Origin: a virus
Taxonomy: Duplodnaviria > Caudoviricetes
DNA: 34,178 nucleotides
Direction: 5' to 3' (one strand)
Virus record (IMG/VR): IMGVR_UViG_3300040985_000787
Coordinates: 1 to 34,178 of that record
Under the pieces are notes generated by a model, which worked only from the letters and a program-made list of their open reading frames with translations, ran no database searches and was not told the DNA's origin. Position numbers and translations under genes: made by a program. Positions 2,205 through 13,879 of this stretch are shown here, piece after piece (the stretch's first letter is position 1; each line of letters opens with the position of its first letter).

Positions 2205-2575
2205 TGAGCGAGCAGTGCAAGACGGTAGAGATCAACGGGACGAAGTACGTGCGGGCAGACCTTGCCGACATGAAGCCAGCCGCGGTTGACGGGCTGAATT
2301 ACGTGATCGTGCGCGGGGATCGTAGCGGCGTGTTTGCGGGATACCTGAAGCAGCGCACGGGGCGTGAAGTGGAGTTGCTGAATAGTCGGCGGATTTGGTA
2401 CTGGCAGGGAGCAGCAAGTATCAGCCAACTAGCCGCCGATGGAACCAGCAAGCCGGAAGGGTGCAAAATTCCAGCGGCAGAGCCACGCAAAACCGTGCTG
2501 GACGCAATTGAGATAATCGACTGCACCGAGAAGGCGCGCAAGAGTATTGAGGGGGTGCAGGCATGGGCGCAATAG
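2204..2575 (+). CDS. DUF6948-like phage protein
   Basis: YVIVRGDRSGVFAG...RRIWYWQGAASISQLAADG...IEII signature; SD AAGGAGG. Confidence 0.75.
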   Translation: MSEQCKTVEINGTKYVRADLADMKPAAVDGLNYVIVRGDRSGVFAGYLKQRTGREVELLNSRRIWYWQGAASISQLAADGTSKPEGCKIPAAEPRKTVLDAIEIIDCTEKARKSIEGVQAWAQ

Positions 2576-2790
2576 GCTCTGGCTCTGGCGATGGCTATGG
2601 CTCTGGCTCTGGCTATGGCTCTGGCGATGGCTCTGGCTCTGGCGATGGCTCTGGCTCTGGCGATGGCTATGGCTCTGGCTCTGGCTCTGGCTCTGGCGAT
2701 GGCTCTGGCTCTGGCTCTGGCTCTGGCTATGGCGATGGCTCTGGCGATGGCTATGGCTCTGGCTCTGGCTATGGCTCTGGCGATGGCTAA
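2563..2790 (+). CDS. 75-aa Gly-X (X=S/D/Y) repeat peptide
   Basis: ATG 2563 overlapping the end of the DUF6948-like gene, G-rich SD-like GAGGGG upstream, TAA immediately after the repeat. Confidence 0.55.
   Translation: MGAIGSGSGDGYGSGSGYGSGDGSGSGDGSGSGDGYGSGSGSGSGDGSGSGSGSGYGDGSGDGYGSGSGYGSGDG
2575..2787 (+). repeat. Hexanucleotide microsatellite GGC(TCT/GAT/TAT), about 35 units
   Basis: 213 nt built only from GGCTCT, GGCGAT and GGCTAT units. Confidence 0.98.
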
Positions 2791-2876
2791 CAAACACAGG
2801 AGGGCGATGGACTGAAACTAGCAACGTTTGATGCCCCCGAAATGTAGCATACTTGAGCGTCAAGATTCTAGGGGGC

Positions 2877-3056: not shown

Positions 3057-5306
3057 GTGGTAGACTATCAAGAATTCCTAGCCAAAAAGAGTTTTTCAGT
3101 AGAGCCATCCGGGTTCGATGTTGACGATTCAGAAATCAATCAGATGTTGTTTGACTGGCAGCGCCGCATTGTATCGTGGGCATGCCGCCGTGGCCGCTCT
3201 GCATTGTTTGCTGATTGCGGCTTAGGCAAGACCCCGATGCAACTTGAGTGGGCACGCCTTGCCAATATCGAGACAGGTATGCCTGTGCTTATTTTTGCCC
3301 CGCTTGCTGTGTCAGCTCAGACCGTGCGTGAGGGTGTCAAGTTTGGCGTCAAGGTGACGGCAGTACGCAATCAGAGCCAATGCACGGATGGGATCAATAT
3401 CACCAACTACGAGATGCTGGAGAAGTTCGATGCCGATGCTTTTGGGGCTGTGGTATTGGATGAGAGCAGTATCTTGAAATCATTTGACGGGGTTTACAGG
3501 CAACTTCTAACTAACTTCGGCAAGTTGGTGCCGCTGCGACTAGCCTGCACCGCAACTCCTGCACCGAATGACATCATCGAAATCTGCAACCACGCTGACT
3601 TCCTCGACATTATGAGCGGTAAGGAAATCCTGGCGCTGTTCTTTCGGCAGGACGGCAACACTACGCACAAGTGGCGACTGAAGAATCATGCAACAAAGGA
3701 CTTCTGGAAGTGGATGGCTTCATGGTGCGTGGCGATGCGTAAGCCGTCCGACATTGGCGGCGACGATGGCAAGTTCATCCTGCCACCGCTGAACGTCAAA
3801 CAGGTAGTTGTGCAGTGCGGCAAACCGCAGGCAGGTTTTCTTTTCTCAGTGGAAGCGCAGACATTACAGGAACGCAGAAGTGCACGCAAGGTCAGTATAG
3901 AAGAGAGAATAGTTGAGGCCGCACGCATCGTTGCGGAGAATCCGGATGAGTCGTGGCTAGTATGGTGTGACCTGAACGTGGAAAGTGATGCGCTCAGGAA
4001 GGCAATTCCTGGAGCGGTTGAAGTCAAGGGCAGCGATTCAAACGAGCACAAAGAGAGTTCGATGTTAGGGTTTTCGTCTGGCGAAGTGCGGACCCTTGTA
4101 ACCAAAGCATCGATCGCGGGATTCGGGATGAACTGGCAGCACTGTTCTAACGTGGTGTTCTTCGGTCTGTCTGATTCATTTGAGCGGTACTATCAGGCAA
4201 TCCGTAGGTGCTGGAGATTCGGGCAGGAGCGCACCGTCAACGTCCACATCGTGACCAGTGACGCCGAGGGTGCGGTAGTCAAGAACATCGAGCGCAAGGA
4301 GCGGGAAGCTAACGAGATGTTTGATAACATAATTGCCAACATGGGGGATATGCAAATGGAGAGTTTGCAACGGTCGGAGATGACGTACAAGGCAGACGTG
4401 GCAGAAGGGAAGGGCTGGAAGTTGATGCTGGGCGATTGCGTGGAACGTATCGCAGAAGTACCGGATGAGAGCGTTGGATTGTCCGTATTCTCACCGCCAT
4501 TCCCTGGTATGTACGCATACACCAACAGCGTGCGAGACATGGGCAACGTGAGGGATCAGAGTGAGATGATAGAGCAGTACGCTTTCCTCGCAGGTGAGTT
4601 ACTACGGGTAGTCAAACCGGGCCGCTCTTGCTGTGTCCATTTGACGCAAGGAGTGGCATTCAAGGGCACCGATGGATATATCGGAGTCAAGGACTTCCGG
4701 GGGGCAATCATCGAGTGCATGCAGACTGCCGGGTGGATTTACTACGGCGAAGTGTGCATTGACAAGAACCCGCAGATCAAGGCAATCCGCACCAAAGATG
4801 CCGGGCTCCTGTTCAAGTCGCTGGCTACTGACTCAAGCCGGATGCACATGGCCCTTGCTGACTACCTGCTGCAATTCCGCAAGCCGGGCGACAACAAAGA
4901 GCCTATCAGGGCTGGGCAGTCTGAGCGGTACAACAACATGAACGGGTGGATTACCGCAGATGAGTGGATTCGATGGGCACGTCCGGTATGGTACGGATAC
5001 GATGCAGACATGAGCGACGGAATCAACGAGACAGACGTACTAAAGAACTTCCGCCATGCCCGTGATGATGACGACGAAAAGCACATTTGCCCGTTGCAGT
5101 TGGGCGTAATAGAGCGTGCTATCAAGTTGTGGAGCAACCCTGGCGATACCATATTCAGTCCGTTCACTGGAATCGGCAGCGAGGGTTACAAGGCGATCCA
5201 GTTGGGGCGTAAGTTTGTCGGGTGCGAGTTGAAAGAGAGCTACTACAACGTAGCACGTGGCAACCTTGAGATTGCCCGGTCAAGCATCAAGGGGGAGTTG
5301 CTGTGA
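3057..5306 (+). CDS. SF2 (SNF2-like) helicase fused to a beta-class amino (N4-C/N6-A) DNA methyltransferase
   Basis: Helicase motifs DCGLGKT, DESS, TAT, QAIRRCWRFGQ; MTase catalytic SPPF precedes SAM-binding SPFTGIGS; GTG start with strong SD. Confidence 0.9.
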   Translation: MVDYQEFLAKKSFSVEPSGFDVDDSEINQMLFDWQRRIVSWACRRGRSALFADCGLGKTPMQLEWARLANIETGMPVLIFAPLAVSAQTVREGVKFGVKVTAVRNQSQCTDGINITNYEMLEKFDADAFGAVVLDESSILKSFDGVYRQLLTNFGKLVPLRLACTATPAPNDIIEICNHADFLDIMSGKEILALFFRQDGNTTHKWRLKNHATKDFWKWMASWCVAMRKPSDIGGDDGKFILPPLNVKQVVVQCGKPQAGFLFSVEAQTLQERRSARKVSIEERIVEAARIVAENPDESWLVWCDLNVESDALRKAIPGAVEVKGSDSNEHKESSMLGFSSGEVRTLVTKASIAGFGMNWQHCSNVVFFGLSDSFERYYQAIRRCWRFGQERTVNVHIVTSDAEGAVVKNIERKEREANEMFDNIIANMGDMQMESLQRSEMTYKADVAEGKGWKLMLGDCVERIAEVPDESVGLSVFSPPFPGMYAYTNSVRDMGNVRDQSEMIEQYAFLAGELLRVVKPGRSCCVHLTQGVAFKGTDGYIGVKDFRGAIIECMQTAGWIYYGEVCIDKNPQIKAIRTKDAGLLFKSLATDSSRMHMALADYLLQFRKPGDNKEPIRAGQSERYNNMNGWITADEWIRWARPVWYGYDADMSDGINETDVLKNFRHARDDDDEKHICPLQLGVIERAIKLWSNPGDTIFSPFTGIGSEGYKAIQLGRKFVGCELKESYYNVARGNLEIARSSIKGELL

Positions 5307-6011: not shown

Positions 6012-6380
6012 ATGGACAACACAACCGAAATGGCATCACTAGCCGCGGCACTCAAAGCCATCGGCGCAAACACCGAAACCTGCCAGCATTGCGGGGCACC
6101 TGAAGCCGGTGCACTCCGCTACAAATGCGGATCGTACTGGCGCCATGAAGATGGGGAGCCGGGAATCGCATCAACCCCACTCTGTCAAGCCCGCGCATTG
6201 CAGAACAATTCCTGCGAGGCAATCATCAAAACACTGAAGCATCAGGGCCAATATAAGTTCGTGCGGCGAGTGCGTGTTCCTGCCACCGAAACTAGCGGCA
6301 CCGAGGAATGGAAGATCACGGTTGAACTGGTTGACGTAGGCGACGACCGCAAGAGTGCCTTGAATCTTGTGGACCCTTAG
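6012..6380 (+). CDS. Zn-finger hypothetical protein (paralog of 7159-7494)
   Basis: TCQHCGAPEAG...YKCGS...C; SD AGGAG. Confidence 0.7.
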   Translation: MDNTTEMASLAAALKAIGANTETCQHCGAPEAGALRYKCGSYWRHEDGEPGIASTPLCQARALQNNSCEAIIKTLKHQGQYKFVRRVRVPATETSGTEEWKITVELVDVGDDRKSALNLVDP

Positions 6381-6393
6381 CGGATAATGCCGC

Positions 6394-6540
6394 ATGGCCA
6401 TATGCAACAAGTGCGGTGAGAAGGCGGCAGCATGGGAGAATGTGTGCTTTGCGTGTAGGAGCGAGGAAGCACAAGAGAAGTTTACTGAGGAAGAGGAGAT
6501 GGATGATGGACAAGACGAAGATTTGGGGCGTGAGGAATGA
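6394..6540 (+). CDS. 48-aa Zn-ribbon protein with acidic tail (not in ORF track)
   Basis: MAICNKCGEKAAAWENVCFACRSEEAQEKFTEEEEMDDGQDEDLGREE; two CxxC motifs; no clear SD. Confidence 0.6.
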   Translation: MAICNKCGEKAAAWENVCFACRSEEAQEKFTEEEEMDDGQDEDLGREE

Positions 6541-7000
6541 GGATGGTGGTTGGGTAGAGGATGATGGCGAGGGGTATTCCTATTCCGAAAAACTCTACCC
6601 TCGCTTTATGTATTGGCAGGAAAGCGACGCCGACAATGTGGCGAAGTTCAAGGGCACAAAGATAGAATTCACCCCCACGTCATACATGCGACAAGGCCCG
6701 GTGCCAGAAGGTGCCCCTGACGAGTGCCCGCTATGTGACCGCCCAATGGTATGGGATTCCGCCAAAGAGAAGGCCCCTGAGTACCTGTGCCCGCATTGCC
6801 TGAGCATCACCGAGGGGATTACAAGGGTTGCACTCAAGATGACGCTGGCGGCCCAGATACGGAAGAACATTCCGAATATCACCGAGCAGGCACTCTTGCA
6901 GATGGTTGCGGTGGCGTTTGAGGCTGCGCTGGTGTTGGCTGAAGGGCAGGCGGGGGTGAAGCGGCCTTCGATGGGAGGTTGTGATGGCAACGACGCTTGA
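6506..7000 (+). CDS. Hypothetical protein with Zn finger
   Basis: CPLC...CPHC; SD GAGGAG 6493-6498 supports start at 6506 rather than 6416. Confidence 0.65.
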   Translation: MDKTKIWGVRNEDGGWVEDDGEGYSYSEKLYPRFMYWQESDADNVAKFKGTKIEFTPTSYMRQGPVPEGAPDECPLCDRPMVWDSAKEKAPEYLCPHCLSITEGITRVALKMTLAAQIRKNIPNITEQALLQMVAVAFEAALVLAEGQAGVKRPSMGGCDGNDA

Positions 7001-7172
7001 GCAGCGGAAAGAGTTGGTTGGCTTATGGGCAGATATAGCGGAGACAGCAGCACGAAAGCACCCGCACCCATGGCCAACCGTGATGGAGAAAACGGCCAAC
7101 ACTATCCGCGAACTGTGTACTGAGATTGACGAACTGCAACGAGAAAAGGAGCAAGACAATGGACAGGACTAG
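6984..7172 (+). CDS. Small helical hypothetical protein
   Basis: SD GGAGG, overlaps both neighbours, coiled-coil-like C-terminus. Confidence 0.55.
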   Translation: MATTLEQRKELVGLWADIAETAARKHPHPWPTVMEKTANTIRELCTEIDELQREKEQDNGQD

Positions 7173-7494
7173 CACATGCCCCAAATGCGGAGCCCCAGAA
7201 ACCGGCCCCGGAATCTTCGAGTGCGGTACCACCCTGAGTCGCAAGTGGTACGGTGTCAAGCGGTACAAGTACCACCACGATTGCAACCAGAACAAGGCTT
7301 GCGGTGATGCCTGCATGGCGCTGGTACTCGACTGCATCAACCGCAAAGCGCAATCGCTGAATTGGCCCCTTCAAGATGTGGTCCACGAGGGCGGCAGGAA
7401 CTTCGGTGACTTCGTTGTCACGGTGACGAGTAAGGCGAAGCGACGGAAGCCGAGCAATGAGCGTAAGCGGGCGCGGAAGAGGGGGGAGGGATGA
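7159..7494 (+). CDS. Zn-finger hypothetical protein (paralog of 6012-6380)
   Basis: TCPKCGAPETG...FECGT; SD AAGGAG before ATG 7159. Confidence 0.65.
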   Translation: MDRTSTCPKCGAPETGPGIFECGTTLSRKWYGVKRYKYHHDCNQNKACGDACMALVLDCINRKAQSLNWPLQDVVHEGGRNFGDFVVTVTSKAKRRKPSNERKRARKRGEG

Positions 7495-8066
7495 GTGATA
7501 GGAAACTACCAAAGTTTGAAGCAGTAGCCGGTAATTGGATAGCCGTTCGCAACGTCAGTATAGACATGAAGACCCTGATGCACCACCCAGTCAGCGAGGA
7601 AGTAACCGGCGTTATGATGATTGATCCAGACGGCACGATGATATTTCATAACCCTGATGTTGACTCACTGCCGGCAACGGAAGGCCCACCGAAGTACATG
7701 GAGCGCCCAAAGTGCGGGACGTGTGATCAGTGGGGGCTGATGACGAGAGCCATAGGCGATACACCCCAAGGCCCTCGTGATGGTGTGAAGTGTGAGCATT
7801 TGGGCGGTAGGTTCTGCGGTCTTGATAGCGAAGCCTGCATGCACCATCAAGACTTCCCGGCGTGGCGTGAGAAGGGGAAGTCAGCAAATCAGGAATTACC
7901 TGAAGGCGTGATCGGTTGGAACATGCCGATCAAGTTTGAGACTATGCCATCAGGACAGCAAGGCGTAGTCAGGACTGACACCGGGCAATACCTCACGAGG
8001 ATTGAGGCGAAGGCCCTAGCTGCAACGTCGAAGGTTTCGGCGGCGATGGATGGGCATTACGAATAG
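7491..8066 (+). CDS. Hypothetical mosaic protein with Cys/His cluster
   Basis: ATGA overlap, SD GGAGG; RPKCGTC...C...C...C..H motif. Confidence 0.65.
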   Translation: MSDRKLPKFEAVAGNWIAVRNVSIDMKTLMHHPVSEEVTGVMMIDPDGTMIFHNPDVDSLPATEGPPKYMERPKCGTCDQWGLMTRAIGDTPQGPRDGVKCEHLGGRFCGLDSEACMHHQDFPAWREKGKSANQELPEGVIGWNMPIKFETMPSGQQGVVRTDTGQYLTRIEAKALAATSKVSAAMDGHYE

Positions 8067-9120: not shown

Positions 9121-9350
9121 TGCAGGGGGATACAATGGAATACGAAGATCGAAAGTACTGGTTTGTATGCGTACCTGAGCCACAGGAAGACGACGGGCTT
9201 TACATTGGGCCGCTATTGTGGACAGGGCAGCGAGAAAAGAAAGCATCTATCGACAGGTGGATCGCAAAGAGCGAAATAACATGGGAGCATTTTTTGACTC
9301 TCGGCTACACGTGCCGCAGACTCACGGTAACCTTGACCCCCACTAAATGA
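9120..9350 (+). CDS. Small hypothetical protein inserted between terS and terL
   Basis: TGATG and ATGA overlaps on both sides; alternative start 9135. Confidence 0.55.
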   Translation: MQGDTMEYEDRKYWFVCVPEPQEDDGLYIGPLLWTGQREKKASIDRWIAKSEITWEHFLTLGYTCRRLTVTLTPTK

Positions 9351-10885
9351 CCCCCGAAGCCAACCGCGCCCTACTCACCGAGTACCTGCTACGGGAAGCC
9401 CGCAAAGACCCCGCCGTGTTCAATCGGTTGGTTCATAGAGATGACAGAACGGGAGAGCCGTGGGATACGCAGCCCTTCCATAGAGAGTGGCTAGACGCAA
9501 TCGAAGCCGACGACTGGGAATTTGACCCCGATGGCAACCCTATTGTGCGCCTCGTCATATTCGCACCAGCCGGTCACGGTAAGTCGCAACAGATAGCCCG
9601 GTCATGGATTGAACGCAAGTTAGGCAGTGCCACCCTTGAAGATAGGCCGATCCCCCGCACTGCTATCTTGAGTAACGTAGTTGGGCAAGCAGAGAAGCGA
9701 GTAACCCTGATCCGCAAGGATATCGAGAGCAACAAGCGGATGCATGCTGTCTATCCGAAGTTGCGCCGATCCGCCGCTGGCACATGGACCACAACCGAGT
9801 TGATGCTAGACGCTGAGAACCCCACCATGGACCCGCACATTCAAGCGGTGGGCTTGCATGGGGCTATCCTCGGGGCACGTCTTGACGTTGGGGTGGTTGA
9901 CGATCCTTGCGACTTTGAGAACACATGGACGGACGCACAGCGAAAGAAGGCCCTAGCGTGGTACCGCTCTAGTTTCGAGAGTCGGTTTGACGGGCGTGGC
10001 ATCATCGTTGTGATCATGACTTCGTGGAACGAGGGCGACCTGGGGCACGCACTTGTCAGGGATCACGGTTACAAGGGGATTACCTACTCGGCTTGTGATG
10101 AGAACTTCGAGAACATCCTTTGGGAGAGCCGCTACCCTGAGAACGTACTGCGTGGAATCATGGCACGCATGGGGCCTATCGAGTTCGCCAGAACAATGCG
10201 CAACAAAATCATGGACGATTCATTCCGCCGTATCCAAATGTCATGGATTCAGAAGTGCCTTGACCGCGGGCTAGGTGTACCGCCTGACGTGAAACCCGAG
10301 GGCGCAACCATGACCATCTGCGGCGTTGACCCGTCCGGGAAGAAGAAGAAGAGCAGCGACCTGTGGGCGTTTACTCCATTCTCTGTGATGCCAAACGGGG
10401 ATAGGCACCTGATCAACTGCTTCACTGACCGCATGACTTCACCAGAGGGCCGCGAAGAGGTGGGCCGAATCTGGCGACTATGTAACCCGGTGTTCTACGT
10501 TGAAGACAATGGGGTGCAAGTTTGGTTCAAGCAGGAGATTGTGCACTCGACGGCTATCCCGGTGAAGGGGTTGACTACCACCGTAGCGAAATGGGATCCG
10601 GCAACGGGGGTTGAGAGTATCGGAATCGAGCTGTTCAACGCCAAATGGATAATCCCATCCGTGTGGGACGAGAACATGAAGAAATCGGTAGCCGCAACCC
10701 GTGGATTGCAGATGCTAGTAGACCAAATGTCATCATTTGAGCATGGTGCACACACTGGCGACGGGCTTATGTCTCTGTACGTTGGGCGCTGCGGCGTCTT
10801 AGAAGAGGAGGCTTGCAAAGTCAACGATTATTCTGATATAGGTATCAGTGCAGGCAACACGCAAAGCAATATATGGAGCCCGTAA
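9347..10885 (+). CDS. terL: Terminase large subunit
   Basis: Walker A APAGHGKS, Walker B VGVVDD, RNase H-like nuclease CGVDPS...D; immediately before portal. Confidence 0.93.
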   Translation: MTPEANRALLTEYLLREARKDPAVFNRLVHRDDRTGEPWDTQPFHREWLDAIEADDWEFDPDGNPIVRLVIFAPAGHGKSQQIARSWIERKLGSATLEDRPIPRTAILSNVVGQAEKRVTLIRKDIESNKRMHAVYPKLRRSAAGTWTTTELMLDAENPTMDPHIQAVGLHGAILGARLDVGVVDDPCDFENTWTDAQRKKALAWYRSSFESRFDGRGIIVVIMTSWNEGDLGHALVRDHGYKGITYSACDENFENILWESRYPENVLRGIMARMGPIEFARTMRNKIMDDSFRRIQMSWIQKCLDRGLGVPPDVKPEGATMTICGVDPSGKKKKSSDLWAFTPFSVMPNGDRHLINCFTDRMTSPEGREEVGRIWRLCNPVFYVEDNGVQVWFKQEIVHSTAIPVKGLTTTVAKWDPATGVESIGIELFNAKWIIPSVWDENMKKSVAATRGLQMLVDQMSSFEHGAHTGDGLMSLYVGRCGVLEEEACKVNDYSDIGISAGNTQSNIWSP

Positions 10886-12195
10886 TGGCAGACACCCCCA
10901 CCGTCAACGATGCCCCACGTGCAGCGCAAGAGGTAGTGATCACCGACCAGCCAACCGTGCGAGCGGAGGGCGGCGTATTGCCTGATCAGCAGATAGGGCG
11001 CACCGGGCTAAATCAGAGCATGGGGTACATTTACGAAGATGTGCTCACTAAGTTGCAGGGGGCCAGCGGGCGCAAGATCTATGATGAAATGGGCAGCAAT
11101 GATCCCATGGTTGGGGCGCTGCTATTCGCCATTGACAAGATGGTGCGGAACGTCGAGTACACGCTGAGGCCTGCGGATCATGCGAAGGGCGAGGAAGCTG
11201 CGGAGTTGACCGAATCGGCGATGGGTGACATGGAGCATCCGTGGTCAGAGTTTATCAGCGAAGTACTTTCGATGCTTCAGTTTGGATTCGCCCCGTTTGA
11301 ACCCGTTTACAAGATGCGTGATGATGGTCGCATAGGCTGGAAGAAGTTGCCTATCAGGGCGCAACGCACCCTTGACCGTTGGCAGTTTGACGAGGACGGT
11401 GAGTTAGAGGGCATGTGGCAGAACGCACCGCCGCATTACCGCTTGACGATGATTCCCATTGAGCGGCTAGTGAACTTCCGCACCACGTCAATCAAGGATA
11501 ACCCGGAAGGCGAGAGCGTTATCCGCAACGCCTACTGGCCCTGGCTAGTGAAACACAACATTGAGAAGATTGAGGCCATTGGGATAGAGCGCGAGTTGAA
11601 CGGCATACCGTTTTTCTACCACCCGGCAGCATGGAGCAGCGCAAGTGCCACCGCAAACCAGATCGCGGCCCTGAGCGCATTGAAAGAGATGGGCGAGCGG
11701 TTACGGGGCAACGAGCAATCGTGCGTGCTACTGCCTCGGATACTTGACGAGAACGGGAAGGATTTACTGGAGTTCAAACTAATCAAGAATGAAGGGAAGC
11801 GAAGTATAGACGTGAACACAACCATCACCCGCAAGAATGGCGAAATCCTAATGACGGTGCTTGCTGACTTCATCATCCTGGGGCATGAGAATAGTGGTTC
11901 ATGGGCACTGGCAGACAGCAAGACAAGCGTGTTTGCCGTGGCTCTCGGTGCATGGCTGAAGACCATCGCCGGAACCATCAACCGCCACCTATTCCCCCGC
12001 CTGATGGAAGCCAATGCCCTACCCGTTGAAGCCGCACCCACCATCGTACCCGGTGACATCGAGACGCCCGACCTTGGCAAGCTCGGTGACTTCCTCGCAA
12101 AGGTCTATCCCGGTGGCTTCATCATGCCCGACATCGACCTAGAGAACGAATTGCGCCGCATGGCTGGCCTCCCTCAGTCAATCAGCGAGGAATAA
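10885..12195 (+). CDS. Portal protein (DUF935/Mu gp29-like)
   Basis: Follows terL with TAATG overlap; IYDEM..ND, FGFAPFEPVY, DNPEGESVIRNAY, IEAIGIEREL, GSWALA motifs. Confidence 0.9.
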   Translation: MADTPTVNDAPRAAQEVVITDQPTVRAEGGVLPDQQIGRTGLNQSMGYIYEDVLTKLQGASGRKIYDEMGSNDPMVGALLFAIDKMVRNVEYTLRPADHAKGEEAAELTESAMGDMEHPWSEFISEVLSMLQFGFAPFEPVYKMRDDGRIGWKKLPIRAQRTLDRWQFDEDGELEGMWQNAPPHYRLTMIPIERLVNFRTTSIKDNPEGESVIRNAYWPWLVKHNIEKIEAIGIERELNGIPFFYHPAAWSSASATANQIAALSALKEMGERLRGNEQSCVLLPRILDENGKDLLEFKLIKNEGKRSIDVNTTITRKNGEILMTVLADFIILGHENSGSWALADSKTSVFAVALGAWLKTIAGTINRHLFPRLMEANALPVEAAPTIVPGDIETPDLGKLGDFLAKVYPGGFIMPDIDLENELRRMAGLPQSISEE

Positions 12196-13101
12196 GTGAT
12201 CCCAGCGGTGAACAGTCAGGGCGGTGAAGTTTTCCGTGAGGTTGCCAAAAGCCCGGAGTACATAGCACTGGAAGCGAAGTCAGAAACGCAGATGAAGAAA
12301 ACCACCCGTGCCGCCTATGCCGAGATGCAAGCGGGCGTTGACGTTGAGCAAGTCCGTGTCGGGTTGGAAGTCGGGGATGAACTGTACGCATTTGAAGCCA
12401 CCAACGTCAACGTAACCGTCAAGTCATTCGATGCGCTGGCCGATGATGTTGAGTCGGCAATGGTGAAGGCCGCAGACATCACGCTCGACGCTGTGGAGGT
12501 GCAAGGCGGCTTCGTGTTCAACCCGCAGTCGGCTGGCTTGCGTGGTGCACTCAACACCGTAGTCAATCAGCACATCGTTGGCATAAAGAACAGCACCAGC
12601 ACGGCCATTCGTGAGACTATACGGGATGCTATCTCGACAGGTAGGCACCCCCTGAACGCTGCGAAGGATATCCAGAAGCAGATAGGGTTGACTTCCCGAC
12701 AGACGAACGCCATTGAGAACCTGCGAGCGAAGTTGATTGAGGACGGTGTAAAGCCCGACGTGATAACGAAGCGGCTGGCCCGGCAAACTAAGAAGTTCAA
12801 GGCGCAAAGGGCTGAAGCCATCGCCAGAACCGAGACAAGCAATGCTATCAACGCAGGGCGGCAAGATCTGTGGGAGCAGTTGCAGCGGTCTGGTGCGTTG
12901 CCGATGGAGCAGGAGATCAAGTGGATTACGGCTTTGGATGAGAGAGTATGTCAAATTTGTGGGCCAATGTCGAATCAGACGGTGGGCCTGCGAAGTAACT
13001 TTCAAGTGACGTTCCCAAAAGCTGGCGGACAGGAAGAGGTGCAGTTGAAACCTCACCCCCCAGCTCATCCGCAATGAAGATGCAGTACTGTCCTCGTGTA
13101 G
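12196..13101 (+). CDS. MuF/SPP1 gp7-like head morphogenesis protein; in-frame TGA at 13075-13077 (293 aa if stop, 301 aa if recoded)
   Basis: RAEAIARTET, KWITALDERVCQICG, PPAHPQ*RCSTVLV-TAG versus family motif HPxCRC. Confidence 0.88.
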
Positions 13102-13108
13102 GAGAGAA

Positions 13109-13879
13109 ATGACGCAGACAAACACCTTCCGGGGCCGCATAACCGCCGTCAACGATGACCTGTGCGTGATCTCTGCCCGTTCAAGCGAAGGTGACGTTGC
13201 CGAGATGGTGCCAATAGTGCAGGCGTCCGGCAATGCCCCGCTAGGTTCGCTGGTGCTAGTGTCTCTTTCTGATACAGGGGCCACCATCGTAGGCCGCAGC
13301 ATAGGCGGTGATTGCGATACCGCTGCAACCGTGCGTGAGGTAATGGCTGGTGCAGGATGCGCACAGGCCACCCGCACAGCTCCAATCATCGGGCACCGTG
13401 TCACCCGTGAAGAGGAAGGGTCACCAGAGAGACAGTTGATTACCGTTGTGGTCTACGAGCCTGGACGCATTGATAGCGGCTACGGAACCACCGCCAGCGA
13501 AGAGACTGTTGAGGGTTGGGCGCATACGTTTATGATTTCCCAAATTGCCATGCGTGGGCAAGTTATCACTGACGAGCATTGGCTGCGTGACAATGACGGC
13601 AAGTGGCTACTCGCAGACCCAATCAAGGGTGATACGTTCGACACGCAGACAGGCGCACCCACCAACCGACTGCCAGCGCCCCCGGTTGATGCCTACGTGG
13701 TAGAGAACTGGGTGAAGCGGTGCGATTGCCCCATTGGTGACACCCCCGTAAGCGCAGGGGCATGGATGCAAGAGATTTGGATTAGAGATGCAACGGCTTG
13801 GGAGCGGGTGCTGTCAGGCGAATACACTGGCGTAAGTATTGAAGGCTGGCGGTTTAGCGCCCCAGACAAGGAGGAGTGA
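13109..13879 (+). CDS. XkdF-like prohead protease
   Basis: VVYEPGRID, WAHTFM, TDEH, VVENW, GAW, VLSGEYTGVSIEG; SD AGGAGAG. Confidence 0.75.
   Translation: MTQTNTFRGRITAVNDDLCVISARSSEGDVAEMVPIVQASGNAPLGSLVLVSLSDTGATIVGRSIGGDCDTAATVREVMAGAGCAQATRTAPIIGHRVTREEEGSPERQLITVVVYEPGRIDSGYGTTASEETVEGWAHTFMISQIAMRGQVITDEHWLRDNDGKWLLADPIKGDTFDTQTGAPTNRLPAPPVDAYVVENWVKRCDCPIGDTPVSAGAWMQEIWIRDATAWERVLSGEYTGVSIEGWRFSAPDKEE

Follow-up and report, generated by a model that had tools for sequence, protein, structure and literature searches.

The DNA analyzed here (34,178 bases, referred to throughout as the window) is part of a tailed phage genome, with a completeness of 33% by CheckV, and its matches lie in marine and seawater metagenome runs. 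It carries the gene for a MuF (SPP1 gp7/Mu F-like) minor head protein in head-module surroundings that are intact, with a portal gene directly upstream and an XkdF-type prohead protease gene downstream (Table 1). The open reading frame (ORF) from 12196 to 13077 matches Pfam family PF04233 (Phage_Mu_F) above its cutoff (E value of 5.8e-11; 43.6 bits against 29.6) and TIGR01641 just below its cutoff (E value of 2.4e-9; 37.5 against 39.65). The segment from 9347 to 10885 was taken as the large terminase by eye, and Pfam gives no match there. For SPP1, the accessible part of PMC6316719 describes gp7 as a protein that binds both the portal and DNA and is packaged inside the head. Elsewhere in the window, a single 749-amino-acid ORF (3057 to 5306, plus strand) joins a helicase C-terminal domain to an N6/N4 DNA methylase, and right after the DUF6948 gene lies a Gly-Ser-Asp/Tyr-Gly tandem-repeat ORF (2547 to 2831, plus strand), in whose repeat region all three plus-strand frames are open. 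In a host search for the window phage, the best capsid match was 38% and no host was assigned; the sequence runs listed with window matches include no RNA run.

Table 1. Features of the MuF locus, with positions numbered along the window
Feature	Position	Strand	Basis
Portal gene, directly 5' of MuF	10873..12195	+	PF06074, E 1.3e-31
MuF (SPP1 gp7/Mu F-like) minor head protein gene	12196..13101	+	PF04233, TIGR01641, translation
CxxC (C252, C255), first half of Cys/His cluster	12949..12960	+	Alignment A3
H291-P-Q-U294-R-C296 motif (HxxUxC)	13066..13083	+	HxxCxC in 138/150 best cluster representatives
In-frame TGA at conserved Cys294, likely Sec codon	13075..13077	+	TGA at this codon in ten further MuF genes
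Candidate bacterial SECIS hairpin, two registers; 3' arm AGGAG forms the ribosome-binding site for the protease gene	13091..13107	+	Folding
TAG, likely true gene end	13099..13101	+	Same stop position in Cys relatives L277, L280, and L281 and in TGA relative L043
XkdF-type prohead protease gene, 3' of MuF; its ribosome-binding site overlaps the hairpin	13109..13879	+	PF14550, E 3.9e-14

From 13075 to 13101 the window reads TGA AGA TGC AGT ACT GTC CTC GTG TAG, in frame with the preceding ORF, and by translation the product is 293 amino acids long if the UGA is not decoded and 301 if it is, since readthrough would add R-C-S-T-V-L-V up to the TAG. An initial annotation of this DNA had reported a TGA at the conserved MuF cysteine followed by RC and a TAG; both the coordinates and the motif are correct, the upstream CQIC that it described as intact is indeed so, and the TAG that it took for the natural end of the gene is where three Cys-encoding relatives also stop. 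The TGA is genuine DNA and not an assembly error, because the site is identical in L001, an independent viral contig, because contigs from runs X3 and X5, which belong to two studies and of which X5 carries no flag as a possible source, span it with no differences (contigs only, at a depth of about 5; of the four runs compared, X3 and X5 cover the codon and X4 and X6 do not reach it), and because the truncated 293-amino-acid protein is found on 6 plus 7 contigs. Elsewhere in this phage TGA is an ordinary stop, as the initial annotation had also maintained in arguing against a genome-wide code change: 15 of the 43 listed ORFs end in TGA, and among the 14 besides MuF there are 7 whose end overlaps the start codon of the next gene. 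A separate count of NTGA overlaps, a pattern that chance alone gives for three quarters of all TGAs, is uninformative and plays no part in this argument. ARAGORN found no tRNA gene in the window and therefore no UCA tRNA, so that neither sign of a reassigned stop codon (TGA as a sense codon throughout, as in codes 4 and 25, or a UCA suppressor tRNA) is present.

The codon in question falls within a conserved Cys/His cluster. Among the 150 best representatives of clusters at 50%, 138 carry HxxCxC, 11 carry something else (6 of these resemble inteins by eye), and the remaining one, which comes from this phage, stops before the Cys. In alignment A3, C255, H291, C294, and C296 are invariant and C252 is conserved in at least 90% of the 97 rows, which were picked by length with the 11 deviant rows left out, so that the unfiltered figure is 138 of 150. 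At the Cys294 site, the 73 scorable loci among 80 viral homologue loci have 71 Cys codons, 2 TGA codons, and no Trp codon, in a scoring that accepted only Cys or stop and with both TGA genes already in the query alignment. Together, C252, C255, H291, residue 294, and C296 may form a metal or redox site. An AlphaFold2 model of MuF (mean pLDDT of 93.4) has a confident beta-strand at residues 297 to 300, past the UGA; Foldseek and VIA-align returned generic helical matches only, and structure searches found no solved MuF structure, with one weak sequence match to the portal protein 8qqn (E value of 0.039). By eye, intein-like inserts occur in other MuF genes at the TGA-equivalent Cys or at the upstream CxxC (loci L285, L305, L349, L350, L322, L521, L528, L529, L530, and L532; proteins P0026, P0109, P0118, P0140, and P0157). 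Inteins prefer functionally critical sites, and inserts of this kind at the Cys cluster fit an active cluster.

Including the window, we found TGA at the same codon in 11 distinct MuF genes, ranging from SPP1-type to Mu-type, and in each it is followed by R or K and then C. Seven of these genes (L012, L043, L140, L154, L360, L417, and L440) came from pattern scans, and three more, G051:C24 (PPNGYR*RC), G286:C20 (IPVHTF*RC), and G885:C134 (PPNGWR*KC), came from a Pfam search of genomes in which a TGA was not required. The pattern scans yield no TGA frequency because the patterns themselves require TGA at this site, and their matches were mostly chance: MuF genes made up 3 of 65 loci, 3 of 46 (all repeats), 2 of 39, 1 of 1 (a repeat), and, in a scan covering 55 of the 64 database parts, 1 of 6 and 4 of 120, and a scan of genome contigs gave no MuF gene among 120 matches from the 20 of 64 parts covered. 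One pattern match, L036, was dropped, as it falls in an alternative frame of another gene. In the four phylum samples that it covered, the Pfam search matched MuF 269 times; 8 of these matches have internal stops, and in 3 of these 8 the stop is a TGA at this codon. Of the other five stops, one is a TGA away from this site in a gene that has decayed (G381), three are TAGs (G445 and also G182 and G365, both of which were set aside as off-site and apparently at Trp positions), and one is a TAA (G1085). Ten further MuF matches end early in the profile, several of them being inteins or contig ends, and where the site is readable they have no TGA there.

The 90% clusters P0006/P0011, P0014, P0015, and P0018, which we have as proteins and not as codons, end exactly before the Cys, and their sisters P0013, P0016, and P0017 continue with CxC. 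A quick IQ-TREE tree covers 87 rows, 15 of which have TGA or are truncated; placing these 15 takes 10 changes, and strong branches force no fewer than 7 of them. The window, L043, and P0006 share a clade (98% support in this quick tree) with six Cys rows. TGA alternates with Cys across the MuF tree, and this repeated exchange is the pattern shown by selenoprotein families, in which Cys homologues are far more abundant (PMC13188914).

Selection past the codon could be measured where the ORF continues for longer. In L154, L417, and L440, the TGA is followed by 95 to 105 open codons, and over 90 codons past it the proteins are 74 to 86% identical, with dN/dS ratios of 0.062 and 0.069 in two of the three pairs; the third pair is saturated at synonymous sites (pN of 0.15 and pS of 0.82). 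The region upstream of the TGA is under similar constraint, and purifying selection over the 90 downstream codons indicates that the TGA of the L154 family is read through. In G051 and G885, about 230 in-frame codons follow the TGA, and past it G051 has clear homology to the Cys sister G328 for about 50 residues. In these two Mu-type genes (at L517:6464 and on L535, respectively), any C-terminal domain would be made only on readthrough; Mu MuF itself carries a C-terminal PBECR domain, according to the available portion of PMC5512222. The window offers no selection test on its own lineage because only seven codons follow its UGA. Compared with the Cys relative L277, five of these codons differ synonymously, one is identical, and one alters the residue, and all seven still match the family consensus, RCSTVLV agreeing with the relatives.

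The hairpin that the initial annotation had placed just past the UGA, TCCT-CGTGT-AGGA at 13091 to 13103 with its loop starting 17 nt past the UGA, is present as described and is one of two registers, the other of which has the minimum free energy (MFE). Their loops are CGUGU at +17 (13091 to 13103) and GUGUAG at +18 (13091 to 13107, the MFE register), both with G-U near the 5' side, and combined they account for 0.82 to 0.94 of the ensemble when 45 to 60 nt are folded and for 0.45 when 70 nt are folded. The local fold has -6.0 kcal/mol in the window against -0.2 kcal/mol in L277, the nearest Cys relative, which has the same 3' arm, and two third-position differences between the two supply the added pairing. 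Bacterial SECIS elements have a loop of 3 to 9 nt with a G in its first two positions, a stem of at least 4 bp, and a distance of 16 to 37 nt from the UGA (PMC13188914), and our filter added to these limits a minimum pairing probability of 0.3 and set no separate MFE limit; the 0.3 threshold was set before the three genome-bin genes were added. Of the 11 TGA genes, 8 have a hairpin of this type, whereas of the 69 Cys genes 14 do (Fisher P = 0.001); the rows are not fully independent, as L154, L417, and L440 are one family. Over nine settings of folding length and threshold the contrast has P values from 0.0001 to 0.0095. Five of the TGA-gene loops begin 17 to 21 nt past the UGA, and a narrower spacing of 16 to 24 nt gives 7 of 11 against 3 of 69; this range was picked after seeing the data, and it is not our main test.

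The hairpin of the window is the weakest passing element, with 4 bp and a probability of 0.33 in the strict register; it is no better than its shuffles (z = 0.01), none of the window and four relatives shuffled one at a time was significant (z from 0.01 to -1.2), and the same filter also passes 22% of TGA triplets picked at random in the window (54 of 250). Only the contrast between TGA and Cys genes is informative. A search of the window against Rfam gave no match. Among the TGA genes, which have separate origins and differing loop lengths, G286 lies just under the threshold (probability of 0.28), and L417 and L440, the genes with the best-supported readthrough, fail the filter because their loops have no G at the required position. 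Across L154, L417 (at 1653), and L440 (at 3016), the hairpin is kept with compensatory changes (UGUU/AACA versus UGUC/GACA), with the loop G in L154 only; it may be a noncanonical SECIS element or another readthrough signal. In the window and in L043, two of the 11 genes, we noted that the 3' arm of the hairpin serves the next gene as its ribosome-binding site and that the true stop lies in the loop. Recurrence of the TGA with the following RC and a hairpin was what the initial annotation had proposed to look for in support of recoding, and it is what we see in 11 MuF genes, with R/K-C retained in all of them and hairpins enriched; the alternatives that it raised, a singleton nonsense mutation or a sequencing error, are rejected by the ten other genes and the independent contigs.

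ARAGORN detected no UCA tRNA in 13 stretches of TGA-bearing records, and no tRNA-Sec was found in five TGA-bearing viral records, all of which are fragments. Three TGA genes come from genome bins: the bins of G051, G286, and G885 all carry selA (3 of 3), and both bins tested for selB and tRNA-Sec, those of G051 and G286, have them as well. The contigs of G051 and G286 look phage-only, and their tie to selA and selB therefore rests on binning; the G885 contig was viewed over 8 kb. selA is common in the group to which these bins belong (4 of 5 tested), and TGA MuF genes are not significantly enriched in Desulfobacterota (3 of 113 versus 0 of 156; P = 0.073), a comparison in which the 156 come from Chloroflexota, Bacteroidota, and Bacillota samples, the phyla are inferred, and thresholds differ among the searches. 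The prophage contig that bears the TGA MuF gene of G286:C20 (L518) also has ORFs of 418 and 134 amino acids (6223 to 7885, minus strand), which by eye resemble two components of a diversity-generating retroelement, its reverse transcriptase and its accessory protein.

We consider it likely that the host's SelB and tRNA-Sec insert selenocysteine (Sec) at the UGA of this MuF gene. A complex of SelB and Sec-tRNA would bind the hairpin and decode the UGA, giving a 301-residue MuF that ends in U-R-C-S-T-V-L-V and carries an HxxUxC motif. The initial annotation had suggested that Sec or Cys is inserted; that the codon is decoded is supported, and from the sequence evidence we infer Sec over Cys. Its further suggestion was that virion assembly may in this way depend on the selenium of the host. 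There being no tRNA gene in the window, the phage would borrow the host's Sec machinery. Judging from the motif, U294 would join C252, C255, H291, and C296 in a putative metal- or redox-active cluster. Under selenium shortage, translation would end at the UGA and yield the 293-residue form, which would lack U294 and C296, both likely ligands, along with the last predicted beta-strand. A further idea, which we regard as doubtful, is that the hairpin acts as a selenium-sensing switch for head assembly: the hairpin would be opened, and the protease gene's ribosome-binding site exposed, only by ribosomes that insert Sec and continue as far as the TAG, so that MuF completion and protease translation would both track the selenium and SelB status of the host.

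The case for readthrough is stronger than the case for any particular inserted residue, and some anaerobes have UGA-reading tRNAs that carry cysteine. The UGA might accordingly be read by a host tRNA of that kind or by leaky insertion of tryptophan, possibly aided by the hairpin, and L417 and L440, whose hairpin loops have no G where the SECIS model requires one, would sit comfortably with such decoding. We nevertheless consider this improbable: G-loop hairpins are enriched at SECIS spacing, Cys alone alternates with TGA in the scored close relatives (with no Trp among them, in a scoring limited to Cys or stop), neither the window nor the 13 stretches of TGA-bearing records encode a phage UCA tRNA, and the TGA genes from bins sit in bins that carry selA.

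It is likewise unlikely that the UGA is a real stop and the protein 293 amino acids long, whether because a nonsense allele became fixed in a gene that the phage can do without or because the codon is a relic of a Sec-using ancestor. In the part of PMC6316719 available, SPP1 is reported to assemble without gp7, so that a null allele could persist, but only about 25% of the gp7-less virions are infectious. A change from TGY to TGA takes a single substitution, the hairpin of the window is weak, and a 12-codon mini-ORF (13074 to 13112, in the -1 frame of the plus strand), which overlaps both the MuF UGA and the protease start through ATGA, could keep the downstream gene coupled after termination at the UGA. 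The ATG of this mini-ORF is missing in L277 and L043, however, and it is probably there by chance. Against a real stop also stand the same codon in ten other genes, the selection past the TGA in one family, the match of the seven post-UGA codons to the family consensus, the third-position differences from L277 that strengthen the hairpin, and the otherwise intact head module. A sequencing or assembly error, or genome-wide reassignment of TGA under code 4 or 25, is scarcely credible, as the contig-level data, shallow though they are, agree in L001 and across two studies, the truncated protein recurs on 13 contigs, and seven other TGA stops overlap the start of the next gene.

If selenocysteine is indeed inserted here, a widespread phage structural family has repeatedly adopted the 21st amino acid, a viral and nonenzymatic family would join the prokaryotic selenoproteome, and selenium would enter virus particles. 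The Cys/His cluster of MuF would be marked as a chemically active site, and the TGA codon would offer a marker by which the sequences of uncultured phages could reveal Sec-using hosts. Databases would also be truncating these genes, with annotations of the L154 type and of G051 and G885 losing a C-terminal region of 95 to 234 amino acids.

Bacterial selenoproteins made through SelB and an in-ORF SECIS element resemble MuF in that the UGA stands at an otherwise conserved Cys, with Cys homologues far commoner, and in that a G-loop hairpin lies 16 to 37 nt downstream; UxC motifs such as that proposed for MuF are already listed for other families in Table 1 of the same catalogue (PMC13188914). Those proteins are cellular redox or metal enzymes, whereas the MuF gene is viral, encodes a virion protein, and lies on a contig without a tRNA gene. 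SaoC, as presented in the accessible text of bioRxiv 10.1101/2022.07.06.499078, likewise has Sec near the C terminus at an invariant Cys motif and a short hairpin that leads into a run of purines, but it is a chromosomal operon gene ending in Cys-Sec, whereas MuF has seven more residues and belongs to a phage head module. With known MuF and SPP1 gp7 proteins (PF04233; the short MuF1 class of PMC5576092), the present protein shares the domain, the position between portal and protease, the CxxC...HxxCxC pattern, and the lack of a C-terminal extension; the difference is that here a TGA replaces the first Cys of CxC.

The 2026 catalogue of 119 prokaryotic selenoprotein families includes no phage or MuF family in its Table 1, and the words phage, capsid, and virus are absent from its text (PMC13188914). 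In the passages covered of the BSepDB paper and in one of its supplements, there is no phage, capsid, gp7, or PF04233 (PMC13326102), and PMC12013277 and PMC9312934 make no mention of phage. Among viral sequences, the available part of PMC9402790 reports selenoprotein families from GOS with few or no viral members, and that of PMC6145125 reports a tRNA-Sec call in Bacillus phages. A literature search at the level of listings, with most subscription papers outside its reach, turned up no publication on a selenoprotein from a phage or from the MuF family. We think it likely that a known form of recoding, by SelB and SECIS, is at work here in a viral structural family for which the literature searched holds no such report. 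Viral selenoproteins do exist in eukaryotic viruses: poxvirus glutathione peroxidase is a host-derived enzyme of an animal virus, with its SECIS element in the 3' untranslated region. As proposed for MuF, such selenoproteins have the virus borrow the Sec machinery of its host; unlike them, MuF is a native phage structural gene with its hairpin inside the ORF and several independent switches between Cys and TGA.
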